From IMG/VR virus record IMGVR_UViG_3300049444_000130: a stretch of 64,000 nt of DNA; one strand, given 5' to 3'. The notes under the pieces are model-generated. The model saw only the letters and a program-made list of their open reading frames with translations, was not told the DNA's origin and ran no database searches. The DNA is from a virus. Taxonomy: Duplodnaviria > Heunggongvirae > Uroviricota > Caudoviricetes. This document shows positions 482-56,557 of the stretch, piece after piece. A program made the position numbers and the translations under genes. How positions within the stretch are numbered: the first letter of the stretch is position 1; each line of letters begins with the position of its first letter.

Positions 482-3352
482 ATGGCGGACACCAATCCCA
501 AGATTACGCTGACCGCGCAAGACAATATGAGCGGCCCGCTGACGTCGATTGCAGCGGCCCTCAAGCGCTTGGAGACGGCGGGGGAAGAGAACCTCGCGTG
601 GGTGACCCAGCTCGCCGCTGGCTTTGGCGGTCAGCAACACGCTGCCGAGCAACTCAGTACGGCGCTCCAGGGCGTGCAGACGCAACTGGCAGCGGGCATC
701 ACGGCACAGCAAGCCAACGCCACTGCGACCCAGGGGGCCACCCAGGCACTGACGCAACAAACGCAAGCGGTCACCGCCACCGGCACCGCCTGGCAGTCCA
801 TCCTCAGCATCGCTGGAGGCGTCGGCATTGCCACCAGTATCAGCGCCATTGTCGGGCAGCTCAAGCAGTTTGTCAGCGAATCCGTGCAGCTCGCCATCAA
901 AATGCAATCCCTCACCGCCTCGTTCACGGCGATTACCGGGAGTAGTGCAGGGGCACAGCATGCCCTCGGGTTTTTGCGCAGCATTGCCGTCCAGACCGGC
1001 ACAGATTTCCTGACCCTCGCCCAGTCCTTTAAGAACTTTGAGGCGGCGGCGCGAGGCACAGCCCTAGAAGGCACGAAGGCCGAAGGCGTGTTCCGGGCCG
1101 TAACCGGCGCCGCCCGCGTCATGGGCCTGTCGAGTGCCGATACGGGCCGGGCCTTGCTCGCCCTGGAACAGATGGTGTCCAAGGGCACCGTGTCCATGGA
1201 GGAATTACGCCGGCAGTTGGGCAATGCCCTTCCCGGCGCCTTCCAGATTGCGGCCCGGGCCATGGGGACGACGACCGAAGGGCTCCAGGCCATGCTGAAG
1301 CAGGGCATCGAGAGCAGTGACTTTGTGACCCGCTTTGGTGCGCAACTGCAACGAGAATTTGGCCCGCGCCTAGCTGATGCCGGACAAACCGCCGCCGCCA
1401 CCTTTGGGCGCCTGGGCAATGAAGTGCAAGCGATGGCCACCAGCGTGGGGGCAAGCATCCTGACGATCTTGACCCCGGTAGCCAGCTTTCTCGAAAGCAC
1501 GCTGCGGAAGGTGCGGGAGACGGAAGAAGCGGCGACCCGACGGGCCAAGGTCGGGCTGGGTGGGATTCCCGAAGGCGCCACCGAGCAGGAAGCGGCACGC
1601 CTCCTTGAGTTACAGAAAAACCAAGATGCGCTGCGGGGGCGCATGGCAGGGGGAGGGCCATTCCCGCAATTTCAAGGGCTCACGGCGCAGCGAGAACAGG
1701 CCGAACTGCTTGCCATTCAAGAACAGATCAAAGCCCGTAAAGACCTCAATGCCACGTTCGCGCGGGATGTCGCCCCCTCGCCCCTGCCCGGCATCCCCTT
1801 TGCCACCGAAGCCCGCAACATTCAGAAAGAAGTCCAGACGCTCCGGGACGAACTGAAAGCCACCAATGTGCAGGCGCAGGTCTTCCCCGCCATGAGTCAG
1901 GACAAGCTCCAGAACGCCAAAGATACGCTGAAAATCCTCGAAACCAGCCTGGAGAAATTGGCTGAGCAGATCGCCCAGACCAAAGACAAAGCGCCGGGCG
2001 TGATGGAGGATCAGAAAAAGCTCCTCGCCACCTTGAACCAGGAATATGCCGAGGCCCTCGCCAATGTGACCAAACTGGAGGCCGCCAAAGAAGCGGAAAC
2101 CGAGGCCACCCGCAAAGCCGCACGGGAAGCCGAGAAGGCCGCGCGCGACAACGAACGGCGGACGCGCGACAGTGCCAAGCTCCTAGCGGAGATGGGCATT
2201 GCGGCCCGACTGGCGGACACCACCGCGCAGGCCGGCGGCGATCCCGAGGCCATGCAGGCCGCCAAGAATGCGGCGGAAGAAGCCACGCTGCGGCAGACCA
2301 TTGCGGAGAAGGGGCTGGGCGCCGCGGTGGAAGAAACGGCGGTCGCCTTTCTCCGCCAGAAGCAAGCTGCCGACGACAGCGCCGCCACGATCGCGGTCAT
2401 GGTCAAGGAGCAACGCGACCGTATCCAAGAGCTGGCCAAGGACCTCGATATCTTTGGCCTCAACCTCGCCCCAGACCAGGAGAAAGCCCTGGCCTTCAGC
2501 AAGAAAATCCAGGATGCCCTCGCCGTCGCCCAGGCCCCCAAAGAGGAACGTCCAGAAACCCGCCTCCGTGCCCTGGCCGGGAAAGAAGGCATCCCCCTCA
2601 GCCCTGCCGATGAAGCGGGCTTGCGTCAGCTCACTCTCACGCTCCAAGAACAGGCCCAGGCACGGGAGATGGAGAAGATTACCACACAGCTCGCGAACAA
2701 TATGCGGCAGACGTTTGACACGCTCTGGGAGCAGGTCTTTACGGGGGGCGTGACGTCCTTTCAGCAGCTCGGGCAAGTGGTGGTGCAGTCGCTCCAGCGT
2801 ATGTTTGCGCAGCTCACGGCGCAAATCATGAACATGCTCCTCAATGCGGCGTCCGGGACCATGGACGAGAAGGGCGGCTGGGAGGGAGCGCTCGCACGGG
2901 GGATTGTCGGCGTGGGGCTGGCAGCCCTGGGGGGCAGTGACTTTGGCTCCGATATCCCGGGCATGACGAATGATCCCGCGGTGATTGGGGATCTCCAGAG
3001 CCAGATAAATCTCCTGGGCACCAGCTCAGCGGGGGGCAATGTTTTTCCAGGGTTGGGCACCATTCGCATGCTGGCCGGGGGCGGCATTGTGAATCGCCCA
3101 AGTTTCACCACTATTGCCGAGATGGGCCAGCCCGAGGCCGTGGTCCCCTTGAGTGGTGGGCGGTCGATTCCCGTGGAAATGCGGGGACAGCAGCCTGCCG
3201 GGAATCAGCCCATCGTCATTGAAATTCACAACGATTACACCAATGCCGTCAGCCCGAGTGCACTCAAAACTGGGAAGAAAGAGATTATTCAACATTTTAT
3301 AAGCGACTACAACGCCGATGGGCCGACCCGTCGTACCATCAAGGCAGGATGA
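482..3352 (+). CDS. phage tail tape measure protein (TP901-family core region)
   Basis: 956 aa, Ala/Gln-rich and coiled-coil. Contains the conserved tape-measure core segment ALEQMVSKGTVSMEELRRQLGNALPGAFQIAARAMGTTTEGLQAMLKQG. Many nested out-of-frame ORFs on both strands are GC artefacts. Confidence 0.9.
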   Translation: MADTNPKITLTAQDNMSGPLTSIAAALKRLETAGEENLAWVTQLAAGFGGQQHAAEQLSTALQGVQTQLAAGITAQQANATATQGATQALTQQTQAVTATGTAWQSILSIAGGVGIATSISAIVGQLKQFVSESVQLAIKMQSLTASFTAITGSSAGAQHALGFLRSIAVQTGTDFLTLAQSFKNFEAAARGTALEGTKAEGVFRAVTGAARVMGLSSADTGRALLALEQMVSKGTVSMEELRRQLGNALPGAFQIAARAMGTTTEGLQAMLKQGIESSDFVTRFGAQLQREFGPRLADAGQTAAATFGRLGNEVQAMATSVGASILTILTPVASFLESTLRKVRETEEAATRRAKVGLGGIPEGATEQEAARLLELQKNQDALRGRMAGGGPFPQFQGLTAQREQAELLAIQEQIKARKDLNATFARDVAPSPLPGIPFATEARNIQKEVQTLRDELKATNVQAQVFPAMSQDKLQNAKDTLKILETSLEKLAEQIAQTKDKAPGVMEDQKKLLATLNQEYAEALANVTKLEAAKEAETEATRKAAREAEKAARDNERRTRDSAKLLAEMGIAARLADTTAQAGGDPEAMQAAKNAAEEATLRQTIAEKGLGAAVEETAVAFLRQKQAADDSAATIAVMVKEQRDRIQELAKDLDIFGLNLAPDQEKALAFSKKIQDALAVAQAPKEERPETRLRALAGKEGIPLSPADEAGLRQLTLTLQEQAQAREMEKITTQLANNMRQTFDTLWEQVFTGGVTSFQQLGQVVVQSLQRMFAQLTAQIMNMLLNAASGTMDEKGGWEGALARGIVGVGLAALGGSDFGSDIPGMTNDPAVIGDLQSQINLLGTSSAGGNVFPGLGTIRMLAGGGIVNRPSFTTIAEMGQPEAVVPLSGGRSIPVEMRGQQPAGNQPIVIEIHNDYTNAVSPSALKTGKKEIIQHFISDYNADGPTRRTIKAG

Positions 3353-5891: not shown

Positions 5892-7604
5892 ATGCATCCC
5901 TGGCACCCTCTCCGGCACCCCTGGCTATGCCTGCTGCTCCTGCTCCTGGTCTGCCTTGTGCCTCGTCATGGGACGAGCGCGACCAAGACGGGCCTGATGC
6001 AAGAGGACGCCGGCATTGTCAACGCCCTCAAGTACGGGGCGACCACGACGGCCCGCAATACCACGACGCTCACGGCGGCAGTCGCGGCGATTGGGGCAAC
6101 CCCGAAAACCCTGATGCTCTCTGCGGGCGCCTGGACGCTGACCGCCAATCTCACCATGCCGCCGACGTTGACGCTGTGGGTGCCCCAGGGGAGCACGTTA
6201 GATATCGACAGCGGGCATACGCTCACGCACCAGGGGCCGCTCAAGGTGGACGGCTGCAACCATTTTACGGGGGCCGGGACGATCCTGCTCCCGGCCATTG
6301 CGGAACTCAACGTATGTTGGTTTGGCGCCACGGGGCAACTCGACGTGGACGATACCGCCGCGTTTCAGCGGGCCGCGCGTGCCCTGAACATGACGCCCAC
6401 GGGGGGCCATGCCACGGGCGTGGGCTGTTGTGCGCCGGTCTTCCGCATTCCTGCGGGCTCGTACAAACTCACCGCGCCGATCCAATTTACGCATGGGGTG
6501 TCCATTAAAGGCCACGGCCCCGCCAATACGCTGCTGGTCGCCTTTAATCTGGCCGGGAATACGTTTGAAACGGGGGGCATGAGCGGGACCGCAGCCCGCT
6601 TTGCGGTCGAGGACCTGACCTTCCTAGCGCTCACACCGAAAACGGCAGGGGCCGCCATTCTCGCGAGTACCCCCAATCCGCTCGACGATTCGCAAGTGCA
6701 ACTCTTCATTCACAATGTCTCGTGCCGGGGGCATTTCAACTGCTTTGATCTGCAGAATAGCGCCTATGCCCATATTGTCGACAATATGCTGGAAGACGTG
6801 CGCGGCACGGGCATCGCTATTGCCACCTCCGGCAATCCTGATGCCGGGGACAACGTCATTGCCCATAACGTCATTGCCGGGGCGGCGGGGTCGGTCGGCA
6901 TTAGCGTGCGCACGGCAGGCCAGCGGATCGTCAACAATAAAATCCTGGCCTTTAGTGTGGGCATTAGTGTCGATCCCATCTCCACGACGGTGAATGACAG
7001 CGACATTCTCATTGCCAATAATAGCATCGAACTCCAGGGCACCTTTGGGATTCTCGTCCAAACCAGTGCCCTGGGGGGGCATCTCTACCATCTCCAGATT
7101 ACCAGCAATCAGTTGGCGCTGCTCCAAGGGGGCAGCCCCTCCGCCTCGATTGCCCTGTCCGGGCTGATTTCCTACACGACGATTGCCAATAACCTGATCA
7201 CGATGGCCGCCCAGGAGGGGACCTATGCCATTCTGCTCTCCTCGAATATTCGCGGCGAGACGCCAAGCGGCTGGGCCATTACCGGCAACCATATTGCGGC
7301 CCCGAACCTGACGACGGCCATTGGCATTCAGATCCCCCAGATTACCCCCCTGGAGTATCGCGGGATGGTGATGGGGAACTATGTCACCGGGCTCACAAAG
7401 CCGTATAGCGGCAACACCGCCGCGTTTATCGGGGGGACGTTTACGAGTGCCACCCTCACTGGGTTTGGAGGGCCGGGGTCCATCGTCTATTGCGCGGGCT
7501 GCGGGGTCACCAGCGGGGCCAATAATACCTGTGCGGGCTCAGGGCCGGGTGCCATGGCGATGCTCACGGAAGCCGGGTGGAAGTGTTTCAATAATCAGAA
7601 CTAG
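5892..7604 (+). CDS. secreted right-handed beta-helix (pectate-lyase-like) protein; tailspike/depolymerase-like
   Basis: N-terminal signal peptide. NVCWFGATG motif typical of pectate-lyase-3 domains. Repeated (I/V)xNN(S/K)I beta-helix rungs. The N-terminal ~100 aa are paralogous to those of the 13156..15384 protein. Confidence 0.6.
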   Translation: MHPWHPLRHPWLCLLLLLLVCLVPRHGTSATKTGLMQEDAGIVNALKYGATTTARNTTTLTAAVAAIGATPKTLMLSAGAWTLTANLTMPPTLTLWVPQGSTLDIDSGHTLTHQGPLKVDGCNHFTGAGTILLPAIAELNVCWFGATGQLDVDDTAAFQRAARALNMTPTGGHATGVGCCAPVFRIPAGSYKLTAPIQFTHGVSIKGHGPANTLLVAFNLAGNTFETGGMSGTAARFAVEDLTFLALTPKTAGAAILASTPNPLDDSQVQLFIHNVSCRGHFNCFDLQNSAYAHIVDNMLEDVRGTGIAIATSGNPDAGDNVIAHNVIAGAAGSVGISVRTAGQRIVNNKILAFSVGISVDPISTTVNDSDILIANNSIELQGTFGILVQTSALGGHLYHLQITSNQLALLQGGSPSASIALSGLISYTTIANNLITMAAQEGTYAILLSSNIRGETPSGWAITGNHIAAPNLTTAIGIQIPQITPLEYRGMVMGNYVTGLTKPYSGNTAAFIGGTFTSATLTGFGGPGSIVYCAGCGVTSGANNTCAGSGPGAMAMLTEAGWKCFNNQN

Positions 7605-10258: not shown

Positions 10259-10643
10259 TCCAGCGCCCGTCCTGGCCGCTCTGCAAGCGCTCGTGCTCCA
10301 GCACGTGCCGTGGTCCCAGGGCGGGCTCGATCCCGCCACGGGGCTGGGGTGCTATGGGCTGGTGGCACTCGCGTTCGCCCAGGTGGGTATCAGCCTCCCC
10401 CCCACGGCGGAGGAGGGGCAGGACTGCTTTACGATGATTCCCCCGCCGTATCAACCGTTTGATGTGGCCCTGATGCGCTTTGCATCCCCGCTGACGGCCC
10501 GGCATGTCGGGGTACTGCTCACCCCGACGACGGGCTACCAATGTTCCTGGCTCACGAACGGGGTGTCACAGTTTTGTATTCACGAGAATATCTGGAAACG
10601 CACCTTTCGGCATGGCTTGCGGTACAAGGAGTTTCTGGGATGA
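10245..10643 (+). CDS. NlpC/P60-family cell-wall peptidase (lambda gpK / GTA gp14-like tail protein)
   Basis: GTG start with a GGAGGG RBS overlapping the upstream stop. A GLGCYGLV catalytic Cys context and a downstream HVGVLL His. The stop overlaps the next gene's ATG (ATGA). Confidence 0.55.
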   Translation: MRLPDPAPVLAALQALVLQHVPWSQGGLDPATGLGCYGLVALAFAQVGISLPPTAEEGQDCFTMIPPPYQPFDVALMRFASPLTARHVGVLLTPTTGYQCSWLTNGVSQFCIHENIWKRTFRHGLRYKEFLG

Positions 10644-13156
10644 GACTCACCGTCACCGCGCCCTTTGACCACGAGCGCCACCTGCAAGTCCCTGCCGTCC
10701 CGGGGCAGACGCTGGGGACCTGGTTCCAGCCCCACGTCTACGAGCACATCACCGCCTGTATGGTCAATGGAGCCTTTCGCGACGACTGGCCGGCCTACGA
10801 GCCCCAGCCCACCGATCACATCCGCCTGTACCTGCGCACCGGCGCGCTCTTTACCCTCGGGGCCACCGCCACCATCTGGGGCATCCTGGCCACTGCCGCC
10901 ATCACCGCCGCCGTCAGTACGGGGGTGTCGATAGGCCTCGGGATGATCATGGGGAAGTTACGGAGCAGCGGGTCGGGGGGAGGCGTCACGCCGCATCAGA
11001 CCGAAGGCAAGGCGGAAAGTGCGTTCGGCATCAGTGGGCGCACCAACACCACGGCCCAGGGCACCCCGAAACCGCTCTGTTACGGCCACCAGCGCGTCTA
11101 TGGGCATATCTTGACGACGCGGGTGGCCCTGGCCGATGAGGGCCGCGCCCTGGCGTTCGGCATCCTGTACAGCCTGGGGGAAGGCCCGGTGGCGTCGGTG
11201 TACAACCCCCAGATTGACGATGTGGACCTCGCCCAGTTTCCGGGAGTCGAGGGGTATTCCCGGCTCGGGGGGGCCGACAATGCCGCGCTCATCCATGCCG
11301 ACTTTGCCACCCTCTCGCAAGTGTGGAGTGATGGACGCCAGCTCCCGCTCGCGCAACCCCTCATCTATCAGACGCGGAGTAGTCGCACGACCAAAATCAC
11401 CCTGTTTCTCTTTCTCCCCTTCCTGCGCACGGCGGAGGGCCTGGCGGCGGGGATGCATTTCCAGGTCGAAGTCCGCGCCATTAATGACCCCACCTGGATT
11501 CTCGCCTCTGCAGCCGTGTTCTGGAGCGGCCTGAGCAACGCGGGGCGCTTCTTCCCGCTCGACTACACGCTGCCCAGCGCCAATCAATGGCTCGTCCGCA
11601 TTACGCTCCTGGATACCACGGTGCAAGAAGGCGTGCTCCCCACGCTCTACGACGTGATGGAAGAGCAAGACGGCAATCCGCTCTATCCCACGCTGGCACT
11701 GTTGGCCATCCGAGGCATCTCCTCGGCGCAGATCCAATCGTTTGACGCCATGCGGGGGTCGGCCATGGTGCAGGGGCGCCTCGTGCCGGTCTGGAACGGG
11801 ACGAGCTTTACGACGCAATGGTCGCAGGGCCGCGCCTGGGTGCTGTACGACCTGCTCACCGAACCCCGGGTCGGGCTCGGGCATCGCCTCGATCCGTCCC
11901 TCATTGATGTCGCCTCGTTCCATTTCGCGCAAGGCTACTGGGATGACCAGGCGGGGGCCAACGTCAACATCGCCCGGGATCGCTGTAACGTGCTCATCAA
12001 TGACCGCCGCCCGGCCTGGGATTGGATCAAACTGCTCCTGGGAGAAGCCCGGGCCGCGCTGATTCCGTCGCAGGGCCTCCTCAAGCTCGTGGTCGATCGC
12101 CCGGGCGAGCCCGGCTTGCTCTACAGTCACCCGGGCAATATCGTGGAAGGCACGGTCCAGGCGAGCCAGGGGAACGGCCAGGGCGTGCGCCCCAACACGA
12201 TCTTCGTCCAATTCCCGGATGAGGTGATTGCCAACCGGCCCCACCTCCTGATCTACCGGGAGCCGGGCAGCGAAAGCGAGCCGCAGCGGGAAGCTCCGGC
12301 GGTGACGCTGGTCAGTCTCAGTGGGTACGAGCATGCGTACTGGATGGCACGCTATACGCTGTTGCGGCAGCGGCTCGTGCAACGGCAGGTAAGTTGGCAC
12401 AGTCCGCTCGGGGCGCTGGTGTCGGAACCATTTGACCATGTGGCCGTGAGTTACGATACGCCCAATTTTGCGCGGGGCACCTCGGGGTTTCTCAGTAGCG
12501 ATAGTACGGTGGACCGCCTGGTGCTCGATCGCCTCGTCACCCTCGAACCCGGCCAGGGCTATACAGTCCTGGTGCGCCATCAGGCCACGAATAGCATGGA
12601 GAGTCGCGCCGTCCTCGGCACCGGCGCGGTCGCCGTGGGGGTGCTGCTCCTCACCGCACCGCTCGGCACGGTGCCCGACGCGGGAGATCTCTACGCGCTC
12701 GGGGTCACCAATACCGCCCTGCACCATCTCGTGCTGGAGCAGGTCACCCAGGACGGAGACCAGGGCTGGCAGCTCGTGGGCGGGGTCTATGCGCCCACCC
12801 TGTATGACTATCCCGTGCCGCCGGCCTCGCCGCTCCCCGCGCCCGCACCGCTCAGTAGCAGTGCCGGGCCGCCGGAGGCACCCCTGCTCGAGGGCGTGGA
12901 AGACACGGAGGGGGGCTTTCTCATGCTGACCTGGAGTCTGCCGGCCGTGCCGGCCGGGGATAGCCTCGTGGGCTTCCACGTGTGGTTTAGCGTCACCGAT
13001 GAGGTGCATTTTCTCTTCTACGGCGATATCGGCATGGAGACGACCATGATTCGGACACTCACCGGGCAGGCCCCAGGCTGGTACGCCGTGCGGGCGCTCA
13101 GTACCCTCGGGGGAGCAGGCCCGCTCTCCAACCACTTTCATGTCGCGGGGATCTGA
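10640..13156 (+). CDS. host specificity / central tail fibre protein (lambda J-like, GTA gp15-like)
   Basis: 838 aa immediately after the NlpC/P60 gene with an ATGA overlap. A large beta-rich protein with a C-terminal FN3-like segment (LTWSLPAVPAGDSLVGFHVWFSV). The track ORF starts further upstream, at 10541. Confidence 0.6.
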   Translation: MRLTVTAPFDHERHLQVPAVPGQTLGTWFQPHVYEHITACMVNGAFRDDWPAYEPQPTDHIRLYLRTGALFTLGATATIWGILATAAITAAVSTGVSIGLGMIMGKLRSSGSGGGVTPHQTEGKAESAFGISGRTNTTAQGTPKPLCYGHQRVYGHILTTRVALADEGRALAFGILYSLGEGPVASVYNPQIDDVDLAQFPGVEGYSRLGGADNAALIHADFATLSQVWSDGRQLPLAQPLIYQTRSSRTTKITLFLFLPFLRTAEGLAAGMHFQVEVRAINDPTWILASAAVFWSGLSNAGRFFPLDYTLPSANQWLVRITLLDTTVQEGVLPTLYDVMEEQDGNPLYPTLALLAIRGISSAQIQSFDAMRGSAMVQGRLVPVWNGTSFTTQWSQGRAWVLYDLLTEPRVGLGHRLDPSLIDVASFHFAQGYWDDQAGANVNIARDRCNVLINDRRPAWDWIKLLLGEARAALIPSQGLLKLVVDRPGEPGLLYSHPGNIVEGTVQASQGNGQGVRPNTIFVQFPDEVIANRPHLLIYREPGSESEPQREAPAVTLVSLSGYEHAYWMARYTLLRQRLVQRQVSWHSPLGALVSEPFDHVAVSYDTPNFARGTSGFLSSDSTVDRLVLDRLVTLEPGQGYTVLVRHQATNSMESRAVLGTGAVAVGVLLLTAPLGTVPDAGDLYALGVTNTALHHLVLEQVTQDGDQGWQLVGGVYAPTLYDYPVPPASPLPAPAPLSSSAGPPEAPLLEGVEDTEGGFLMLTWSLPAVPAGDSLVGFHVWFSVTDEVHFLFYGDIGMETTMIRTLTGQAPGWYAVRALSTLGGAGPLSNHFHVAGI

Positions 13157-18900: not shown

Positions 18901-20757
18901 GTGGTGCGTCATAACAACACATGGACTCGTCTCACGCTGGCCCTTCTCTTGCTCCTATGGTTTAGTCACTCAGCGTACTGTCTGGAATATTTTGTATCGA
19001 CAGGAGGGAGCAACGCCAATTCCTGCACCGCCGCCAGAACGGTCAGTACGGCCAAGCGGGATATCAACAACGCCACGGGCTGCCTCGCCAGCGGCGATAC
19101 CGTCACTGTGAAAGCAGGGCTCTACGCCGAAGGCAATGTTCAGCTTCCGTCCGGCTCCGCCGGCGCCCCCACCACGATCCGCGCGGCCCCGGGGGAAACG
19201 GTCACGCTCCAGCCCAATAATATTAGTATCGACCAGATTATCAAACTGAACACCGGTCAGAGCTATATTACGATTGACGGCCTGATTCTTGACGCCGGCA
19301 GCCCCACCGGCACGCGCCTGTCCTTTGGCACGGTCGTCAATCAGGACCACGACAGCCCCTCCGGGCATCACTTCACGGTCAAAAACTGTGAGGTGAAGAA
19401 TGGGCGGCATCAGGGGCTCCACATTGCCGGCGCGAACTGGACGGTGGAGAATAACCATATTCACCACAACGGCACCGACGTGGATCTCGATCACGGGATC
19501 TATTTTTCGGCCCACGATAGCCTCGTGAAGAATAACAACATTCATGACAATCGCTGTTTTGGCATCCAGAACTACTCCAGCACCTTCACGAACGTGAACA
19601 ATAACACCTACATCGGCAATACGTTTACGGCCAATGGCTGTGGCGTCGTCATCTCCCAGGGCAGTGGACACCTGTTCATGAACAATGTCATGCATCACGA
19701 CGCCACGCGGGGGACCGTCCCGGCCTTTCGGTGTTGCTCCGATGGGAAGTACTATAACAACACCATCGTGAATAATGTCGGGAGTTCCGGGCTGGAGGGC
19801 TATGGTCCCACCCTGGGCAGTGGTGTGATCATCAAGAACAATATTATCTGTGGCAATAATGGCGCCCAGATTGGCAGCACCGGCGCCACGATGAGCAATA
19901 ACCTGACCACCTGTCCGACGTTCGTCAATAGTGGGGCGAACGACTACCACCTGGTGACCGGCAGTGCGGCGTTAGGCGCGGGAACCACGCTGACCGAGGT
20001 CACGACCGACAAAGACGGCGTGCCACGCCCGCAACCGCCCGGGGGCGTCTATGACATTGGCGCCTACGAGGGCACGGGCAGCGGGGGGCCGCCGCCTGAT
20101 CCCCCGCTCGCCGAGCAGATGTTCGCGCGATGGACGCTCGATGAGGGCACGGGGACGAGCGCGGCGGATGCCACGGGCAATGGCCGCACGGGGACGCTCT
20201 CCGCCAGTGGGCTGTGGAGTCCAGGCCGGGTCGGGAAATTTGCTATTACCATGGGCGTCACCGATATGCTGACCGCTCCCACACTCTGGCCCCTCACGGC
20301 CTATACGTGGGCCTTCTGGCTCAAGGCGGCGACGGCGCCCACGGTCGGCGTGGGGGAAGAGACGCAGCCGTTCTTTTACGGCGCGCAAGCCACGCCGGCG
20401 TTTTGGTTCAGCTGGTCGCATGTGACCGTCGGGGCCGATCAAGCCGCGGCGCAGCAAGATACGGGTGGGGGGAATACCCGGGCGCGCATTGGCAGCACCC
20501 TCCTGGCGAATCGATGGTATCATCTGGCCGCGACGTGGGACGGCACCACGCTGAAACACTACCTCAATGGCGTGCTGCAAGCGTCCACCGCCATCTCGAC
20601 CATGTTCACGCCCGTGGGGCCGGTGTCGGTCGGAAATGGGTTTGTAGGGAGCGTAGATGACGTGCGGCTGTATAACTTCCCCCTCGATGGGGCGGCCATC
20701 CTGGTGCTGTACCGGCAGAGTGCGGGCATGCCTCGGCACAGAATGAGTATGCGATAA
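18901..20757 (+). CDS. secreted right-handed beta-helix protein with C-terminal LamG domain
   Basis: Signal peptide. Repeated NN(N/T)xIxxN rungs typical of the pectin-lyase fold. A C-terminal LamG signature: WYHLAATWDGTTLKHYLNGV...GSVDDVRLYNFPLDGAAILVLY. Confidence 0.5.
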   Translation: MVRHNNTWTRLTLALLLLLWFSHSAYCLEYFVSTGGSNANSCTAARTVSTAKRDINNATGCLASGDTVTVKAGLYAEGNVQLPSGSAGAPTTIRAAPGETVTLQPNNISIDQIIKLNTGQSYITIDGLILDAGSPTGTRLSFGTVVNQDHDSPSGHHFTVKNCEVKNGRHQGLHIAGANWTVENNHIHHNGTDVDLDHGIYFSAHDSLVKNNNIHDNRCFGIQNYSSTFTNVNNNTYIGNTFTANGCGVVISQGSGHLFMNNVMHHDATRGTVPAFRCCSDGKYYNNTIVNNVGSSGLEGYGPTLGSGVIIKNNIICGNNGAQIGSTGATMSNNLTTCPTFVNSGANDYHLVTGSAALGAGTTLTEVTTDKDGVPRPQPPGGVYDIGAYEGTGSGGPPPDPPLAEQMFARWTLDEGTGTSAADATGNGRTGTLSASGLWSPGRVGKFAITMGVTDMLTAPTLWPLTAYTWAFWLKAATAPTVGVGEETQPFFYGAQATPAFWFSWSHVTVGADQAAAQQDTGGGNTRARIGSTLLANRWYHLAATWDGTTLKHYLNGVLQASTAISTMFTPVGPVSVGNGFVGSVDDVRLYNFPLDGAAILVLYRQSAGMPRHRMSMR

Positions 20758-20795
20758 GCAAGCTTGCAAGCAAGGAAGCAAGCTTGCAAGCAAGG
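20756..20795. promoter_or_regulatory. 2 x 20-bp tandem repeat AAGCAAGCTTGCAAGCAAGG containing the 10-bp palindrome GCAAGCTTGC
   Basis: A perfect tandem duplication lying between the stop of the 18901 gene and the holin-like gene at 20808. Confidence 0.6.
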
Positions 20796-20807
20796 AAGGG
20801 ATACGGT

Positions 20808-20966
20808 ATGGGTCTGCTCCTGATTCTCCTGTGCGTCGTGCTGATCGTCAGCGGTGTCCCGCAAGCGCCCTGGGGCACGTGGCATGGTGGCGGGTGGGGC
20901 GTCAGTGGCCTGGGCACCGTGGTGCTCGTGGTGCTCCTGGTGCTCCTGCTCACTGGGCGCCTGTAA
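20808..20966 (+). CDS. small two-TM membrane protein (holin-like)
   Basis: 52 aa with two hydrophobic helices separated by WGTWHGGGWG. Positioned at the start of the small-membrane-protein cluster. Confidence 0.35.
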   Translation: MGLLLILLCVVLIVSGVPQAPWGTWHGGGWGVSGLGTVVLVVLLVLLLTGRL

Positions 20967-20977
20967 AGGAGTCTGCC

Positions 20978-21541
20978 ATGGCCCTCCCCCCGAACACGCC
21001 CAGCAGCGCACCGCCGGCCTCGACCCTGGTGACGCCCCTCAAAGGCCCCACGATCTCGGCCTGGCATCGACCGGACGCGCCCGTGAGTTTCACCATCCCC
21101 CCCGTCGTGTTCCTCGGGCTCTTAGTGGCGTGCATGGCGTTTGCGGCGGTGCTGACCTGGTTTGTCCTCTACCACCAGGCCCGTACGGACGAGACGCTGG
21201 CCGCCCTCGTGACCAAGACGGAGACCGCCCTGCGGGGGCTCGACGGACGCCAGGACACGTTAGAGCGGGCGCAACAGGAGATGCTGCGGGAACAAGCCCG
21301 ACGCACCGCCCTGGTCGTACAAATTCCCGCGGTGCAGGCCCTTCTCCAGGCCCAACAAACGCATATGAGTGACAATACCATCACCCTGAAAGCGGTTGAG
21401 GATAGAGCAACGACGAATGCCCAGGCGATTGGCGAACTCAAAAAAGAGACGCTCGATCTGCGCGTGCGGATGAACGATTTGTTGTATGTCAAACGGGTCC
21501 ATCCCCCACCGAAAAAGGAGCGCCCGTATGACGCTCCCTGA
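20978..21541 (+). CDS. membrane-anchored coiled-coil protein (N-terminal TM)
   Basis: TM helix VVFLGLLVACMAFAAVLTWFVLY followed by a long coiled coil. Confidence 0.4.
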   Translation: MALPPNTPSSAPPASTLVTPLKGPTISAWHRPDAPVSFTIPPVVFLGLLVACMAFAAVLTWFVLYHQARTDETLAALVTKTETALRGLDGRQDTLERAQQEMLREQARRTALVVQIPAVQALLQAQQTHMSDNTITLKAVEDRATTNAQAIGELKKETLDLRVRMNDLLYVKRVHPPPKKERPYDAP

Positions 21542-22016
21542 GCCCTTCTGGCCGCACGCCCTGTGTCTGCTCCACGATCCAAGCCTAATCGGGCTGCATG
21601 TGCTGGCGGATGGGATGATCGCCCTGGCCTACTTCGCCATCCCGAGTGCGCTGGCCTATTTTGCGCTCAAGCGGCGGGTGTTCCCGTTTCGCGGCATCGT
21701 CCTCTGGTTTGCGGCGTTCACGGTGGCGTGTGGCCTGACCCATGTCGGGAATGTGGTGGAGATGTTTTCGCCGGCAGCCTATTGGATCACCGGCGCGGGG
21801 AAGCTGATCACGGCGGCGCTCTCGTGGTGGCTGTTGCGGCTCCTCCTCCCCGTGCTCCCCCAGATGCTGGCCCTGCCGGGCCTGGACCAATTGGACGAGG
21901 TGCGGCAGTGGATGAGCATGCCCGTCGGAGAGACCCTGCCGCAGATGCAGGCGGAGCTCGATAAACTGATCGACGTGCTGACGACGCTCACGCCTCCCAA
22001 AGCGCCCGAGAGGTAA
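21528..22016 (+). CDS. stand-alone ethylene-binding-domain (ETR1 N-terminal-like) membrane protein
   Basis: Three predicted TM helices. DGMIALAYFAIPSALAYFALKRRVFPFRGIVLWFAAFTVACGLTHVGNVV aligns almost residue-for-residue with ETR1 [50 protein letters not shown], including the Asp, the Tyr and the Cu-ligand Cys/His pair. There is no output domain. Confidence 0.6.
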   Translation: MTLPEPFWPHALCLLHDPSLIGLHVLADGMIALAYFAIPSALAYFALKRRVFPFRGIVLWFAAFTVACGLTHVGNVVEMFSPAAYWITGAGKLITAALSWWLLRLLLPVLPQMLALPGLDQLDEVRQWMSMPVGETLPQMQAELDKLIDVLTTLTPPKAPER

Positions 22017-22026
22017 AGGAGGGCGG

Positions 22027-22401
22027 ATGGGCGAAGCCCCACCACGCGGCCAGTTGGACCAACTGCGGCGCGACATGCAGGACACCACGACGAAGCTCGC
22101 GGATGTCGTGTATCAACTCCGCGATACGCTGCGCCAACAGCAGCATGTGGAAGAGGATATGCGGGAGACGCGGGCCGCCGTGCAGAGCATCCATCAGCTC
22201 CTCCAGGGCGGGGATCTGCCGCTGCTCACGCGGATGATCGTGGTCGAGGGGAAGGTGAAAGAGGTGGAAGCGAGCCAGTTCCGCAACCGCGATTGGTGGC
22301 TCAAAATCGCCGCGACCTTGACCACAGCGCTGATTGTCGCCATGGCGGGATTGCTGCTGGTGCTGTACGTCAGCACGAAAACCCCGCTGCCGAAGCCCTA
22401 G
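22027..22401 (+). CDS. coiled-coil protein with C-terminal TM anchor
   Basis: 124 aa: a coiled coil followed by WWLKIAATLTTALIVAMAGLLLVLYV. Confidence 0.4.
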   Translation: MGEAPPRGQLDQLRRDMQDTTTKLADVVYQLRDTLRQQQHVEEDMRETRAAVQSIHQLLQGGDLPLLTRMIVVEGKVKEVEASQFRNRDWWLKIAATLTTALIVAMAGLLLVLYVSTKTPLPKP

Positions 22402-22461
22402 GAGCGTATCCGATGTCTGCCGACTGTTTCCAACTTTCTCCATGCCACAAGGAGTGACGCT

Positions 22462-22953
22462 ATGCGTAACCGCCTTCTCCTCCTCATCTTGGCGCTCCTC
22501 GTGCTGCGCATTGGCACAGCACGAGCGCAAGTGACCGACACGAACACGGCCCCCGATGGCCGCACCACGACCCACAATATGGACTGCATGGGCAACATGT
22601 GGCTCTGGACGCAGTGGACCATCTTCACGGACGCGGGCCGGGGGGGCCGCCGCGTCATCCGGTTTGTGCAGGACTGCGTCTCCACCGAGGGGCACCCTTC
22701 GACGGCCAACCGGGACAACTGGCCCACCCTGACCCTCCGCGATGGCAACGTCAAGGCTATCTGGGTCGAGGGCTTCAGTCACTTTGCCCAGGCCATCCCC
22801 GGCGCTGTCGCCCAGTTCTGGCCGTTCCGCTTCGAGCAACGCGCCGACCGTATAGATTTTCCGGTCTTTACGGGCGATGAACCCGCGACAGACGAGCAGC
22901 ACGAGCAGACCAGCTACGCGAGCATCTATTTTTTCGCCAGCAGGCCCAGGTAA
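22462..22953 (+). CDS. secreted hypothetical protein
   Basis: Signal peptide MRNRLLLLILALLVLRIGTARAQ. 163 aa. Confidence 0.4.
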   Translation: MRNRLLLLILALLVLRIGTARAQVTDTNTAPDGRTTTHNMDCMGNMWLWTQWTIFTDAGRGGRRVIRFVQDCVSTEGHPSTANRDNWPTLTLRDGNVKAIWVEGFSHFAQAIPGAVAQFWPFRFEQRADRIDFPVFTGDEPATDEQHEQTSYASIYFFASRPR

Positions 22954-22996
22954 GGACCGTATCAACATCCCGACGCCGGAGGAAGGACGGTGCGCC

Positions 22997-23341
22997 ATGT
23001 CTGCCGACGCCCTCGGGAAGTGGATCATGGGCCTGGTCGCCACGCTGCTGGTGCTGGGCCTGGGGTCCTATATTGCCACGACGAATCGCCAGTTGGACGC
23101 GATGGAAAATCGGCTCGATGCCCTCACGGAGCGGCAAGGGGAAGTGCGGGAGCAGTTGCGGCATCTCGAAGTCGTGCTCCCGGAGATGACGGAGCGGCTG
23201 GCGGACCTGCGACGGGAGTGTCTGGCGCTCCAGGCGCGGGTGGTGCTCCTCGAAACGCAGGGTGTGGTGCTGGCGGAGCGGCTCCGGGTCCTCGACCAGC
23301 ACCACCAGGAAGGGTGGCGCCCACGTGAGGACGGGCCGTGA
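22997..23341 (+). CDS. membrane-anchored coiled-coil protein (N-terminal TM)
   Basis: MSADALGKWIMGLVATLLVLGLGSYIATT followed by a coiled coil. Same architecture as the 20978 gene. Confidence 0.4.
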   Translation: MSADALGKWIMGLVATLLVLGLGSYIATTNRQLDAMENRLDALTERQGEVREQLRHLEVVLPEMTERLADLRRECLALQARVVLLETQGVVLAERLRVLDQHHQEGWRPREDGP

Positions 23342-23730
23342 CGGCGCCCACGTTGGCGGAAATCGCCTACCGGGCCTGGTGTGCGCAGCAACCCCTACCG
23401 CAGCCGCTCTATAAGGCCCTCACGTTCGAGGAGAAACTGGGGTGGGCAGTCGGGGTACAGGAAGCCCTGGAGGCAGCGCTGACCGTCCCGGGCCTCCCCC
23501 CACCGCCGACTGTGGACCTGACGCAGACCATCACCCAGCTCCGTCAGGCCGTGCAGAGGGCGCTCCAGCCCCACGCGTACAGCCTCGCCCAGGCCAGCCG
23601 CGTCGTCGGGGTGAATCGGCGCACCCTCACACGCTGGCTGGCGGGAGAAGACAATTTGACGCTTCGCACGCTCCAACGACTGGAGACGTGGGTAGGGAAC
23701 AGGTGCCGAAAGCAAGACGATGGGCCTTGA
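23338..23730 (+). CDS. HTH DNA-binding protein
   Basis: C-terminal SLAQASRVVGVNRRTLTRWLAG helix-turn-helix. Confidence 0.4.
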   Translation: MTAPTLAEIAYRAWCAQQPLPQPLYKALTFEEKLGWAVGVQEALEAALTVPGLPPPPTVDLTQTITQLRQAVQRALQPHAYSLAQASRVVGVNRRTLTRWLAGEDNLTLRTLQRLETWVGNRCRKQDDGP

Positions 23731-25103: not shown

Positions 25104-25472
25104 TTACACGGTGCTCGTCCCCTCGACCCCCCGACGCAGCCGCGCCTCGGTGCGCATGTGAAGCCAGTCCATGGCCATGATCACCGCGTCGAGGGCCTCG
25201 GCGTTCTCCTGACAGGCGTAGGGACCCGCTTGGAAACATGCCAATCGATCCCGCACCACCGCCAGGAGCGCCTCGTTCGAGACGCCGTTGGCACCCGCCT
25301 CCGCGATGGGGCCTTCCTGAAAATGGAGATCCCAGTGGAGCAGGTCGAGGCCATCACGAGGAATATGCAGATGATACTGATGGCACGCCCCACCGGCGCC
25401 CGGTTCGTCCAACACGGTGATCGTAATCGCCTCGTTCAGGCCCTTGACGGTATGCGTCGTAATGGTTCTCAT
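25104..25472 (-). CDS. hypothetical phage protein
   Basis: 122 aa ORF with GC3-rich codons and consistent spacing in the - strand operon. Confidence 0.35.
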
Positions 25473-31100: not shown

Positions 31101-31613
31101 CTAGGGCTCCTTCTGCTCATCTTGGATTTTCCGGGCTTGCCGCAAGAGCCGGGCTTTGCGGTCGGCATATTCCCATTCCTCCAACGGCGTGCAGTACTCA
31201 GGGATACGCTTGTCACGGGGTGGGGCGGGGATGGGCACGCCCTCAGCGACCTGATCCAGCAGCGCTTGTATCTGGTTTTTCACATAGTCAGGGGGCATTG
31301 GCCCGGCGAGCAGGGCCTTCTGCGTCTTTGCACGATAGTCGGCATCAAAAGCGCGTACGGCATCTCGCTTCCGGTATTCATCACGATAGGTAGCGACATA
31401 CCTGAGCAGAATGGCGGGGAGCGGGACCTTGTGAAAGGCCTCGTGCTCCATCACGCCGTAACACGCCTGCTGCCACTCCTCGATGGTGCAGTTGTCCTTC
31501 ATCACCTGCCAGTACAAGCGTTGGCGGGTCTCGGTGAGCTCATCAGTGAAGAAGGTGCCGAGAAGATTCAGGGAGTGGTAAAAGATCACCTCGTCCTGTG
31601 AGGTCATGCGCAT
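31101..31613 (-). CDS. hypothetical protein (replication module)
   Basis: 170 aa. Lies immediately downstream of the replication initiator. Confidence 0.35.
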   Translation of the reverse strand: MRMTSQDEVIFYHSLNLLGTFFTDELTETRQRLYWQVMKDNCTIEEWQQACYGVMEHEAFHKVPLPAILLRYVATYRDEYRKRDAVRAFDADYRAKTQKALLAGPMPPDYVKNQIQALLDQVAEGVPIPAPPRDKRIPEYCTPLEEWEYADRKARLLRQARKIQDEQKEP

Positions 31614-32514
31614 GCTCCTCTAAAATGCGTTGCGTGGCTAAGGCCGTCCGATAGCCCTTCTCGCCCAGCCGAGCATAGGCGGCCTCGGCGGGGGTTTCGT
31701 CGTATTTCCCTTCCGCGACTTTCACACAGTTCTCTGTGCCATCCTTGCCCTTGCTCAACAGCCAATCAAAGTCCGCACGCCAGCCACCATGACCGTTCGA
31801 GACCTTCTCCCCCCGCAGAAAGGGCGAGGCGCCGATATGGGCGAACACCTCAGACCACCACGCAGGATCAGGAAACATACGGAGATACTGCTTGGCCTTG
31901 GCCAGTCGAGCGGGGGAGAGCGTTTTAATCTTTGGGTGACTGGTGGGAGTGTCGGCATTGTACATCGCGACTAATTGCTCTGGAGTCAGCACAGCGGGGG
32001 ATGTCGCGGTAGCGACAGGGGGGTTACTCTCTTCAATATTTTCTACAATCAATACTTGCTTCTTCTCAATACTAACTAGCAGCGGATTAGCCGACTTCGG
32101 TTGATCCGACTTCGGTTGATCCGACTTCGGTTGATCCGACTTCGGTGACGTGGTGGCGGTCAGGCCAATCGTCTCGGTCGAGGAGGAGGCGTGCATCTCT
32201 TGGTCCGCCAGCGTGGGCGTTTCGTAAATGGTGGTATCCCATCCAGCCATGCGACCTTTGGCACCCCGGAGCTTCTCCCGATGCAGATAACCTGCCTTCT
32301 GGAGTTCGGCCAGTGCTGAGCGAATGGCATCCCGGCCTTCGCGGGGGGACGAGTGTTCGAGTTGCTCGATATACACCTGCCAGCCATCTGGTTTGGACAT
32401 CAGATAGGTATGGATACCTTTGGCCCGATAGCTGAGTCGGTCATCATTGAGCGCGGTCGTATCCAGCATGACAAAGGGTTTTTCCTTGGATTTCTTGGTA
32501 CGGACAACGCTCAT
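31543..32514 (-). CDS. replication initiator / replisome organiser with winged-helix N-terminal domain and KSDQP tandem-repeat linker
   Basis: Start at MSVVRTKK with a GAGGG RBS. KPFVMLDTTALNDDRLSYRAKGIHTYLMS...AIRSALAELQKAGYL has the HTH_36/DnaD-like pattern. Contains a 15-bp tandem repeat encoding KSDQP x3.7. Confidence 0.5.
   Translation of the reverse strand: MSVVRTKKSKEKPFVMLDTTALNDDRLSYRAKGIHTYLMSKPDGWQVYIEQLEHSSPREGRDAIRSALAELQKAGYLHREKLRGAKGRMAGWDTTIYETPTLADQEMHASSSTETIGLTATTSPKSDQPKSDQPKSDQPKSANPLLVSIEKKQVLIVENIEESNPPVATATSPAVLTPEQLVAMYNADTPTSHPKIKTLSPARLAKAKQYLRMFPDPAWWSEVFAHIGASPFLRGEKVSNGHGGWRADFDWLLSKGKDGTENCVKVAEGKYDETPAEAAYARLGEKGYRTALATQRILEEHAHDLTGRGDLLPLPESSRHLLH
32091..32146. 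repeat. 15-bp tandem repeat CCGACTTCGGTTGAT (about 3.7 copies) inside the replication initiator gene
   Basis: Seen directly in the sequence. Confidence 0.8.
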
Positions 32515-32682
32515 AGAGATACCCTCGTGTGCGTCACAGCGCAGCATGCACTACACTTCTGGATATTCAATACTGCGCACCACAGATATGTATATTACAC
32601 ATTTGTACTTACGATTGCAACGTAAAATATAATTTGCCTTGTGTAGTAGGCTCATATCTGTAATAATCTCTCAGCTCATATC

Positions 32683-43109: not shown

Positions 43110-43982
43110 ATGAAGACGTTACCGGATCTCTGTGCCGCCTATCTGGCCGAAACGTTCTTGAATCACGAGCCATCTACGCATTATCAGCAAACGCGCTTTT
43201 TTGCGGGGCTCATCGCCGACCTGGGCGCCCTGCCGCTCCCCGAGGTCACCCCAGACGTGCTGCGGGCTTGGAAGGGCCGGCTGGCCCTGCGGCACAAACC
43301 GGCGACCGTGTACCGCTACATGATGTTTCTGGGGGCCGCCTTGCGCTACGGCGTGGAGTGCGGTTGGCTGGCGAGAGATCCTATGCGCCGTATCCGCAAG
43401 CCCTCGCCGGGGCGCGGTCGGGTGCGTTTTCTGACCACGCCTGAGCGTCAGCGGCTCTTACTCGCCTGCCGGATGAGCCGACAGCCCCTCCTGTATCCCC
43501 TCGTGGTCCTGGCGTTGGCGACGGGCGGCAGGAAAGAAGAGCTGCGACAGCTCCGCTGGCCCGAGGTCGATTTTGCGGCGGGGGTCGTGCGTTTCCTCAA
43601 GACCAAAACCCATGCGCCGCGTAGCGTGCCGCTCGTGGGCGAAGCGCGGACATTGCTGGAGCAGTTGGCCCAGCGGAAACGCCCGGCAGAGGTGTGGGTA
43701 TTTGCGCGGCCAGATGGGCAACAGCCGATTGAGATGGAGAGTGCGTGGCGGACGGCGCGGACGTTGGCCCAGGTGGACCAGTTTCCCTTTCATGCCCTGC
43801 GGCATACGTATGCCTCGTACCTCGCGATGAGTGGGGCCAGTTTGCGGACCATCGCGGAGTTACTGGGGCATGCCAAGATCACCCAAACGATGGTGTATAC
43901 GCATATGTTAGAAAGTCATACAACAGGGGCGGTAGAGAAAATGTATCGATGGTTGCGCGAGAAGGAGGAGCCGGGGCCGTGA
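43110..43982 (+). CDS. int: tyrosine recombinase / phage integrase
   Basis: An N-terminal SAM-like region, then HALRHTYASYLAMSGASLRTIAELLGHAKITQTMVYTHM (the R..H..Y catalytic box). Confidence 0.8.
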   Translation: MKTLPDLCAAYLAETFLNHEPSTHYQQTRFFAGLIADLGALPLPEVTPDVLRAWKGRLALRHKPATVYRYMMFLGAALRYGVECGWLARDPMRRIRKPSPGRGRVRFLTTPERQRLLLACRMSRQPLLYPLVVLALATGGRKEELRQLRWPEVDFAAGVVRFLKTKTHAPRSVPLVGEARTLLEQLAQRKRPAEVWVFARPDGQQPIEMESAWRTARTLAQVDQFPFHALRHTYASYLAMSGASLRTIAELLGHAKITQTMVYTHMLESHTTGAVEKMYRWLREKEEPGP

Positions 43983-48765: not shown

Positions 48766-49059
48766 ATGGCCCTCTACCATGTCAATGCCAGTGTGATTAC
48801 CAAAGGGAAAAGCCCGGGGGGAGGGAGTCGCTCCGCTGGCGCGTGGTGCAGGGGTGGGTACTGCCGGTGCAGGCGCCCCAGGTGGTGGTCACGCCGAAAA
48901 GGGGGAAGTGATGCCAGAGACGCCTTGGTATGTAGAAATGACGTGGTGGGAGTGGGGTCCTATCGGGGCCATGACCCTGGGGCCATTGGTAGGCTTCTGG
49001 CTCGTGGACTGGCTCAAGAAACGTCGGGAACGTTCGGCGAGGGGGAAGTGATGGAGTAG
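48766..49059 (+). pseudogene. remnant of MobA/MobL-family relaxase N-terminus
   Basis: MALYHVNASVITKGKS matches the MAIYHxxxKxxSRSxG relaxase start. Similarity is lost after a CCCGGGGGGAGGGAG tract (48811..48825). The ORF stops at 97 aa. Confidence 0.35.
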
Positions 49060-49214
49060 AACGGGAAGCAATTTCCCTCGGATGAGTGGCTTGCCTCGCC
49101 AGAACTGAAGAAGCTCAAGCGGGCGATTTCTGCGAGCGGGCGCGACAAGCTTCCCCTCGCTCGAAATAGGTATGACGGGGAGGGGAGGTGGCTACGCTGG
49201 TAAAGGAAGACGGG

Positions 49215-50603: not shown

Positions 50604-50627
50604 CCCGAGCGTATTGCTCTCGCCACT

Positions 50628-52582: not shown

Positions 52583-52584
52583 CG

Positions 52585-53025: not shown

Positions 53026-53026
53026 C

Positions 53027-56042: not shown

Positions 56043-56063
56043 GAATGTGAGAAGGGAGGAACC

Positions 56064-56545: not shown

Positions 56546-56557
56546 CGAAAGGCATGT

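Follow-up and report, generated by a model that had tools for sequence, protein, structure and literature searches.

In the plant ethylene receptor ETR1, residues D25, C65, and H69 form or organise a Cu(I) site, and K91 bridges D25 and passes the signal on to helix III (PMC10266040); I35, P36, and I62 are among the residues reported as indispensable for binding ethylene (PMC6586836, PMC11819568). The transmembrane (TM) domain of ETR1 alone also binds ethylene (PMC10266040), as does the isolated 130-residue fragment AzoEtr1[1-130] (PMC11819568), and bacterial receptors built on this ethylene-binding domain (EBD) have diverse outputs (PMC7700396, PMC11819568). How ethylene binding in the membrane domain becomes a signal is still unresolved, with kinase-independent output and ion permeability both actively debated. 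Here we describe a stand-alone EBD protein encoded at 21528..22016 (+) in a tailed phage (Caudoviricetes; IMG/VR record IMGVR_UViG_3300049444_000130), on a stretch of 64,000 nucleotides (nt) referred to throughout as the window. The protein belongs to the ETR1_N domain family, each sequence and structure feature tested being present save Ile62, and its residues point to a genuine EBD with a predicted Cu(I) site at D28, C68, and H72.

The family assignment comes from Pfam PF25487 (ETR1_N), which matches the window EBD with E=5.1e-28 and 97.6 bits (gathering cut-off 27) over residues 20-116, equivalent to profile positions 2-97 of 97; it is the sole domain match, with no GAF, PAS, kinase, or receiver domain detected in the protein, and sequence searches of NCBIfam, PHROGs, and the PDB with the EBD gave no match. 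Chance hydrophobic similarity, considered as a separate explanation, is ruled out by the profile score. Residue register was taken from an alignment of database relatives, two plant-type fragments, and the N-terminus of Arabidopsis ETR1 (used for numbering only; the database plant-type sequences share and corroborate its register). In this alignment the copper-site equivalents are D28 (ETR1 D25), C68 (C65), and H72 (H69), helix I contributes Y35 (Y32), I38 (I35), and P39 (P36), and K92 corresponds to K91, with T95, A96, and S99 supplying the T-A-x-x-S pattern of helix III. Six of the seven ethylene-binding essentials are thus retained, the exception being the position of ETR1 I62, which is Thr65 here. 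A first-pass annotation, made from the sequence alone, had called the protein ETR1-like, aligned its Asp, Tyr, and Cys/His pair with D25, Y32, C65, and H69, and noted a helix III pattern K-(L/V)-x-TA-x-x-S; the profile match and the alignment bear out all of these points, and the peptide strings it quoted agree exactly with the translation, but it overlooked Thr65 and gave the length as 163 amino acids (aa) by counting the stop codon.

The gene itself is a real open reading frame (ORF) of 162 codons plus stop. A Shine-Dalgarno sequence, AAGGAG (21515..21520, +), was read 7 nt 5' of the ATG at 21528 and favours this start over the ATG at 21486, and GC content at third codon positions (GC3) is 0.84 in a window of 63% GC, as expected of a true gene. 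The start overlaps the stop of the preceding gene, g187, by 14 nt, which suggests translational coupling. The identical EBD protein occurs in identical gene order on 11 metagenomic contigs from several samples.

An AlphaFold2 model of the window EBD, built on a 61-sequence alignment, has a mean predicted local distance difference test (pLDDT) score of 87 and places helices at residues 18-48, 55-80, and 82-114; hydropathy agrees on three TM helices, and the 48 residues past the third form two further helices (119-129 and 133-154). Both the three-TM architecture and the missing output domain had been recognised beforehand, with the remainder put at about 45 residues. TM helix 1 (21579..21671, +; pLDDT >89, supported by alignments) carries D28 (codon 21609..21611) and Y35 (21630..21632) as well as I38 and P39; codons read in TM helix 2 (21690..21767, +; model and alignments) are those of T65 (21720..21722), C68 (21729..21731), and H72 (21741..21743); and TM helix 3 (21771..21869, +; model and alignments) carries K92 (21801..21803), T95, A96, and S99. 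The predicted cytoplasmic tail (residues 115-162; 21870..22013, +) was delimited by the model, an alignment of the closest phage relatives, and column statistics over 271 aligned sequences, 267 of them cellular. Its net charge is acidic, and its first helix is the counterpart of the juxtamembrane linker in full-length receptors. The same column statistics define a periplasmic N-terminal motif, P9-H10-x-x-C13-L-L-H16-D17 (21552..21578, +), in which H10 and C13 are near-universal in bacterial EBDs and H16 and D17 set the phage clade apart (position 16 is Trp in 97% of cellular sequences). The near-universal bacterial PHGxCxLW has, in other words, become PHxxCLLHD, with a His and an Asp added beside the His/Cys, and this segment could form an additional periplasmic metal-binding string. 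PDB searches returned no experimental structure of an EBD, and Foldseek found no significant match to the window model in the PDB. Against BFVD, Foldseek gave one borderline neighbour, A0A8E4UZR7 (E=2.5e-3, probability 1.0; query TM-score 0.59), an unnamed viral protein of 289 aa which may be another viral EBD-like protein.

The closest relatives of the window EBD are five further proteins (P0098, P0097, P0002, P0194, and P0195), with which it makes up a clade of 155-166 aa. A profile search seeded with the window EBD and its first relative gave further short relatives, and a HMMER scan of 1.84 billion representative proteins added two members (P0194 and P0195); of the 8,842 proteins matched at E<=1e-3 in that scan, two short ones only (166 and 158 aa) scored 223 and 194 bits, the next score was 149 bits, and the rest of the matches listed were nearly all far longer (shortest 210 aa, most 280-1,828 aa). 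In a neighbour-joining analysis of the EBD core with the 90 closest other sequences, four clade members were monophyletic in 198 of 200 bootstraps. Identity among the six is 46-59%; over the core it is 52-65% among the four, compared with about 50% at most to any cellular EBD (56% for P0002). The four nonetheless keep all near-universal EBD residues (H10, C13, D28, I31, A34, Y35, F36, I38, P39, R49, P53, F61, F64, C68, G69, T71, H72, Y85, K92, T95, S99, and P111), together with 11 clade-specific substitutions, including H16 and D17 beside H10 and C13 and, within the helices, W60, N75, E78, W100, and L103, and the tail motifs LPxLxELxxxRxWM and ELDK(I/L) are conserved inside the clade. D28, C68, and H72 are invariant in six of six members, as are D28 and K92 of the Asp-Lys bridge. 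Because copper ligands, pocket residues, the Asp-Lys relay, and the clade-specific tail are all kept, the conservation pattern argues that copper and ligand binding and relay to helix III are still in use.

The same pattern bears on whether the gene is a non-functional remnant, that is, the 5' piece of a host sensor-kinase gene left by imprecise recombination and passively carried. The protein does match the N-terminal part of long receptors, and the 73 closest complete relatives from one-genome-per-species bacterial assemblies, which are mainly cyanobacterial with acidobacterial, verrucomicrobial, and alphaproteobacterial additions, are without exception fused receptors of 378-1,466 aa. A remnant would nevertheless hardly have an intact ORF with a strong Shine-Dalgarno sequence and coding-type GC3, or be the best-conserved gene of its neighbourhood; the six diverged members group together while keeping every key residue and a conserved, clade-specific tail, and the same truncated architecture recurs in two independent phage lineages (see below). 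A decayed origin is accordingly most improbable, and a pseudogene fragment is effectively ruled out by the conservation pattern.

Less clear-cut is the identity of the ligand. The position of ETR1 I62 is Ile in 99% of the 267 cellular sequences; in the clade it is Thr in the window EBD, P0098, and P0195 and Ile in P0002, P0097, and P0194. A protein whose Cu(I) site senses or buffers copper, senses redox state, or binds another gas or alkene, and which is not an ethylene sensor, would account for strict retention of the copper ligands alongside Thr at the I62 position in half of the six members; the H-x2-C-x2-H-D periplasmic string, with its gained His16 and Asp17, resembles a metal-binding motif, and a copper chaperone gene lies beside one cellular stand-alone EBD. 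Copper binding alone, however, has no need of the six of seven ethylene-binding residues and the relay Lys that are conserved, Lys91 mutants of ETR1 still bind copper (PMC10266040), and the scan of window genes turned up nothing else for copper homeostasis among those covered. We consider such a copper or other-ligand protein quite unlikely.

The EBD gene sits within a temperate tailed-phage genome rather than at a junction with host DNA. The genes upstream of it, on the same strand, encode a tape-measure protein (482..3352, +; TMP_3 3.5e-26, phrog_2335 2.5e-43), a central tail fibre protein resembling lambda J (10541..13156, +; phrog_31 9e-51), and several beta-helix or Laminin_G_3 tailspike-like proteins, the last of which (18901..20757, +; Pfam Beta_helix, NosD, and Laminin_G_3) stops at 20757 and ties the EBD cassette to the tail module, an arrangement shared by related loci (L001/L002, L098, and L105). 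Downstream, mostly on the opposite strand, follow an SPFH protein, three DNA methylase-like genes, and a phage O-like replication initiator (31543..32547; phrog_345 1.7e-20), with a tyrosine integrase beyond them (43110..43982, +; 3.9e-28). No host housekeeping genes were found among the ORFs scanned in the 64-kb window. A host gene at a prophage edge was considered and rejected, since phage-type genes flank both sides; that explanation also fails on the cassette following tail-fibre genes in three further lineages for which upstream context exists (L001/L002, L098, and L105).

Wherever context exists for the clade, the order is tail-fibre genes (Laminin_G_3, F5_F8_type_C, Beta_helix), then a g187-like gene, the EBD, and a g124-like gene, and this arrangement was found in four lineages (the window, L098/L099, L100, and L105/L106). 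In the window, g187 (20978..21541, +) has a Pro-rich N-terminus, one TM helix (43-61), and a C-terminal coiled coil, whereas g124 (22027..22401, +) has an N-terminal coiled coil and a C-terminal TM helix (94-112), both by hydropathy; g124 begins 11 nt past the EBD stop and is preceded by an AAGGAGG of its own. In the window, L098/L099, and L100, the EBD gene starts inside the end of the g187-like gene, overlapping its stop, and in L105 it abuts that stop directly, and the g124-like gene lies within 11 nt of the EBD or overlaps it in all four lineages. Identity to the window copy is 47-53% for the EBD, 39-45% for the g124-like genes directly 3' of it (L098, L100, and L105), 25-28% for the g187-like genes directly 5' of it (L098/L099, L100, and L105), and 25-35% for the tail-fibre genes, making the EBD the best-conserved gene of the stretch across these phages. 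In another locus, L097, which has the closest homologues of both g187 (39%) and g124 (56%), the two abut directly and the EBD is missing; it is therefore accessory, a gene inserted into a membrane cassette that existed already, and not the core of that cassette. Taken together, these comparisons indicate that the EBD is under strong constraint where present and appears to be an add-on input to the cassette. The contig carrying P0002 (L096; ENA ERZ1292642, Hain_H14_01um) has a name suggestive of a 0.1-um filter fraction from groundwater, which would fit a free phage particle or a very small host.

The remainder of the cassette consists of small genes on the same strand. Its first gene, g52 (20808..20966, +), encodes a 52-aa protein with two TM helices by hydropathy and a DUF3309 match (E=5.2e-5, 23.7 bits, cut-off 22.3); beyond g124 lie g163 (22462..22953, +), whose sequence has a predicted signal peptide but no Pfam, PHROG, or PDB match (single-sequence AlphaFold2 pLDDT 42), and g114 (22997..23341, +; gene call on metagenomic copies), with an N-terminal TM helix by hydropathy and a coiled coil. 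An HTH_3 (Xre-type) regulator (23338..23730, +; Pfam E=2.9e-6) closes the plus-strand block. Between the tailspike stop and the g52 start, a perfect tandem duplication (20760..20798) of a 19-20 bp unit, AAGCTTGCAAGCAAGGAAG, occurs as two exact copies against 0.03 expected; each copy contains the 10-bp palindrome GCTTGCAAGC, which in the window is confined to this site. The duplication is a candidate operator pair for the cassette, perhaps for the HTH protein. PDB sequence searches with g163, g124, and g187 were empty, and neither g124 nor g187 had a tblastn match in GenBank phages.

Whether this is a lysis cassette, as had been proposed for 20808..23341, deserves separate consideration. The small membrane and coiled-coil character of the neighbours and their position after the tail fibres stand; the label "holin-like" found no support, the two-TM 52-aa protein matching DUF3309, and the lysis assignment is itself weakly supported, with neither a holin nor an endolysin match. 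The architecture of g187 is i-spanin-like, and its L097 homologue weakly matches Rz-like spanin PHROGs (E=1.3e-3); g124 weakly matches phrog_937 'hemolysin' (XhlA-like; E=2e-4), a match that its homologues do not reproduce; and multi-TM proteins follow in related cassettes, which was counted toward a lysis or envelope role. In L105, the multi-TM ORF after the g124-like gene (6335..6934) has a Met in its interior, directly before a lipoprotein signal whose lipobox is LLAGC, and may hold a separate small lipoprotein gene (o-spanin-like), either embedded or mis-called. Position, the marginal g187 and g124 matches, the multi-TM proteins, and this lipobox together point weakly to a role in lysis or another envelope process.

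Such a setting also invites the explanation that the EBD itself permeabilises the membrane, as a three-TM, N-out/C-in holin, pinholin, or viroporin-like protein that is maybe gated by ligand or copper. Sites past the tail-fibre genes often hold lysis genes, and the topology and size of the EBD are like those of class I holins; a related EBD in another phage (L104, below) has a sub-threshold Phage_holin_3_6 match (E=0.007), the BFVD structural neighbours include a Gordonia phage holin at a non-significant E-value, and ETR1 and ERS1 dimers have been described as Ca2+-permeable, with permeability enhanced by ethylene (preprint, bioRxiv 10.1101/2025.10.20.683334). A plain holin, however, would not need to retain all copper and ligand residues across 46-59% identity, its tail would be expected to be basic and not net acidic, and the closest cassette relative, L097, lacks the EBD, while other multi-TM candidates exist in these cassettes; no significant holin family match was found in Pfam or PHROG, nor an endolysin nearby. 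A pore-forming EBD is thus distinctly improbable.

Cellular EBD-only proteins offer a second point of comparison. All four cellular stand-alone EBDs examined (124-210 aa; P0011, P0020, P0015, and P0168) lie directly upstream of a HisKA/HATPase_c kinase gene that overlaps the EBD gene or begins within 7 nt of it, in loci here termed split receptors (L101 3382..6138; L094 6001..8069; L095 6001..7983; L007 948..5439). The kinase that follows P0020 combines two TM helices with a periplasmic domain, and in the P0168 operon (L101) a gene for a SCO1/SenC copper chaperone immediately precedes the EBD gene, with response regulators further downstream. We know of no published description of this cellular arrangement of split EBD and kinase. 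Because the cellular stand-alone EBDs adjoin kinase genes, EBDs can evidently act in trans on a separate membrane partner, and by analogy this supports signalling by contact for the phage EBD. No kinase domain was detected in the approximately 50 window ORFs scanned against Pfam, which include all called genes of the plus-strand block around the EBD, and none in the related phage loci either. The window EBD is, then, neither of receptor-kinase architecture, nor part of a split EBD-kinase arrangement, nor a member of any holin family.

A kinase could instead be supplied by the host. The phage EBD might dimerise with a host EBD kinase, with dominant-negative or constitutive effect, or dock on a host kinase, thereby rewiring motility, pili, biofilm, or exopolysaccharide and, for example, altering receptor display or effecting superinfection exclusion. 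Truncated plant etr1 fragments can act dominantly, and the determinants of dimerisation (Cys13 at the N-terminus, the TM domain in full, and the first helix of the linker) are kept in the phage protein. The stand-alone cellular EBDs adjoining separate kinases are in keeping with such interference, and so is the temperate character of an element with an integrase; the candidate operator pair and the terminal HTH gene could moreover permit expression apart from the late operon. In bacteria, biofilm, motility, and colonisation are governed by EBD receptors (PMC11819568, PMC6508509). Set against this, a translationally coupled gene right after tail genes suggests late expression, when host rewiring would be of little use, and the clade has diverged from cellular EBDs (about 50% core identity at most) with 11 substitutions of its own, several in the TM helices, which is not expected of mimicry. 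Interference with a host receptor therefore strikes us as rather unlikely.

The search for further viral EBDs was extended with the clade alignment to IMG/VR, where two viral contigs were found to carry a stand-alone EBD while sharing nothing else with the window: L103 (7785..8444; UViG_3300024284_000013, GC 50%; ETR1_N 5.5e-30) and L104 (7890..8546; UViG_3300024331_000257, GC 67%; ETR1_N 1.2e-20). Both encode proteins of ~218 aa with an extra N-terminal TM helix, the cellular-type PHGxC-x-W motif, seven of seven ethylene-binding residues, and no output domain, and both lie after tail genes (a DUF1353/phrog_1158 tail gene precedes that of L104) and beside single-pass coiled-coil membrane proteins. 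Trimming of an EBD to a sensor-only protein has thus occurred in at least three phage lineages. By comparison, tblastn of the window, L103, and L104 EBDs against 50,697 GenBank phage genomes found none; in IMG/VR the canonical motif IALAYF[SA]I matched nothing, and matches came with clade-specific motifs only; and a JGI metagenome scan gave distant full-length kinases only. Literature searches, with most subscription papers outside their reach, found no paper on a phage-encoded or kinase-less viral EBD. The first-pass annotation knew of no virus-encoded or truncated stand-alone example, a statement that needs qualifying: in the form of split receptors, truncated stand-alone EBDs are common among cellular genomes, and other phage ones are present in databases without annotation. 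Giant DNA viruses of brown algae have been suggested to have exchanged full-length histidine kinases of the cytokinin/ethylene type with their hosts (PMC7700396).

The roles that the first-pass annotation had suggested, sensing of ethylene or copper or manipulation of a host ethylene-sensing pathway, are plausible. On the strength of these comparisons, the following mechanism is proposed as the most likely. A temperate tailed-phage lineage would have captured an EBD once and kept the sensor and about 45 juxtamembrane residues without enzymatic output. The protein would insert N-out/C-in and dimerise as EBDs do, possibly helped by the conserved periplasmic Cys13; loaded with Cu(I), it would bind ethylene or a chemically similar small ligand, and occupancy would pass via the Asp28-Lys92 bridge to helix 3 and the conserved two-helix cytoplasmic tail. 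As no enzyme is attached, the output must lie in contact with another protein or in the membrane domain's own properties, and the signal would be read by direct protein-protein contact with no phosphotransfer. The likeliest partners are g187 and g124, the single-pass coiled-coil membrane proteins that always flank the EBD: contact with neighbours is favoured because g124 is predicted to present a 90-residue coiled coil on the side of the EBD tail, the cytoplasmic one, and because the three genes are translationally linked in four lineages. That the EBD serves as a regulatory input is suggested by L097, where the cassette exists without it. A phage membrane function encoded after the tail genes would in this manner be made conditional on a signal, possibly lysis timing or some other envelope event. 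Copper and ethylene binding, topology, partners, and output are all inferred; the chain as a whole, a Cu(I)/ethylene-type membrane sensor read through contacts with its neighbours in a late membrane cassette that may be linked to lysis, is advanced tentatively and with a little less than even confidence, and the more specific claim that phages of this lineage employ a minimal copper-ethylene sensor lacking a kinase to switch their own membrane machinery under ligand control, as in lysis timing, must be regarded as doubtful.

Several observations weigh against the contact-read sensor. A residue reported as indispensable for binding ethylene (I62) is Thr in three of six clade members, and ligand affinity or specificity may differ as a result. 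In Pfam, PHROG, and PDB searches, no endolysin and no holin family match was recognised near the EBD; the link to lysis consists of single marginal PHROG matches (E=2e-4 and 1.3e-3) that homologues do not reproduce; and hhalign of the g124 family against the neighbours of the L103 and L104 EBDs gave no homology. Conserved gene order in phages is, in addition, no proof of physical interaction.

Other features of the window lie apart from the EBD cassette. An F-type conjugation or type IV secretion system block is also present at 49000..62500 (+), including TrbI/VirB10 (51362..52582, +; 8e-21), a TraC/VirB4-like ATPase (53027..55576, +; 3e-24), and TraU (60209..61519, +; 2e-18), and the window is accordingly either a composite of phage and conjugative element or a prophage adjoining an integrative conjugative element. 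For the tail and TraC proteins, the only relatives were at <=27% identity, in proteobacterial phages and plasmids, and IMG/VR scans with the J-like protein and with g124 returned no relatives of the window phage. For a 122-aa protein at 25104..25472 (-), the precomputed annotation of metagenomic copies gives the label PF24729 Acb2_Tad1_hairpin, which denotes an anti-defence sponge fold; hmmscan of the identical sequence gave no Pfam family at E<=0.01, and the label was not reproduced.

A natural EBD of 155-166 aa without enzymatic output is a compact target for structural and ligand-binding work, and its output should be findable genetically, as it must run via a short conserved tail and a few neighbours. 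Were the proposal to hold, a gas- or copper-sensing input would be added to the known modes by which phages read their environment, this would be the first virus to sense a gas directly, an EBD would prove able to signal purely via membrane protein contacts or ion permeability, and a natural minimal EBD of 160 residues would become available for solving the domain experimentally, a structure that is still missing. The split EBD-kinase operons of cells, one of them with SCO1/SenC, show independently that action in trans is open to EBDs and provide easy bacterial systems in which to study it.

With plant ETR1 (residues 1-128), the window EBD has in common the three TM helices, the Asp/Cys/His and Tyr/Ile/Pro residues, the Asp-Lys bridge, and T-A-x-x-S; it differs in lacking GAF, histidine kinase, and receiver domains and ending 48 residues past TM3, in having the bacterial PHxxC where plants have a CxC pair, in the Thr at the I62 position, and in being phage-encoded. 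The PHxxC motif and the first linker helix are shared with SynEtr1/slr1212 of Synechocystis and AzoEtr1 of Azospirillum, and it is bacterial full-length receptors (cyanobacterial, acidobacterial, and verrucomicrobial) that are closest to the window EBD, at 40-49% identity; those receptors, however, run to 378-1466 aa with PAS, GAF, HisKA/HATPase, or GGDEF outputs, whereas the phage protein has none and its clade has 11 specific substitutions. The cellular split receptors are alike in being small EBD-only polypeptides (124-210 aa) that must signal in trans, but the phage EBD is never beside a kinase, its neighbours on both sides being membrane proteins with coiled coils.

Small membrane proteins that make phage lysis depend on a signal are known, among them antiholins such as T4 RI and the XhlA/XhlB pair of PBSX. 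The analogy with these is that of a small accessory membrane protein co-encoded with others past the structural genes, and the possibility shared with them is that a membrane event is made conditional on a signal, the weak XhlA-like match of g124 falling on the same side; in contrast to antiholins and holins, the window EBD has no sequence relationship to them, no endolysin was identified with it, and the signal would be a gas or metal bound in the membrane. The giant DNA viruses of brown algae, whose histidine kinases have been proposed as vehicles for the transfer of cytokinin/ethylene receptors (cited in PMC7700396), are a precedent for viral carriage of receptor genes of this signalling class, although such viruses infect eukaryotes and their hybrid kinases are full-length, as opposed to the sensor-only protein of a bacteriophage. 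In summary, the sensor domain itself is already known; the novelty lies in its being carried by a phage, in an architecture without a kinase, and in the partners conserved with it.

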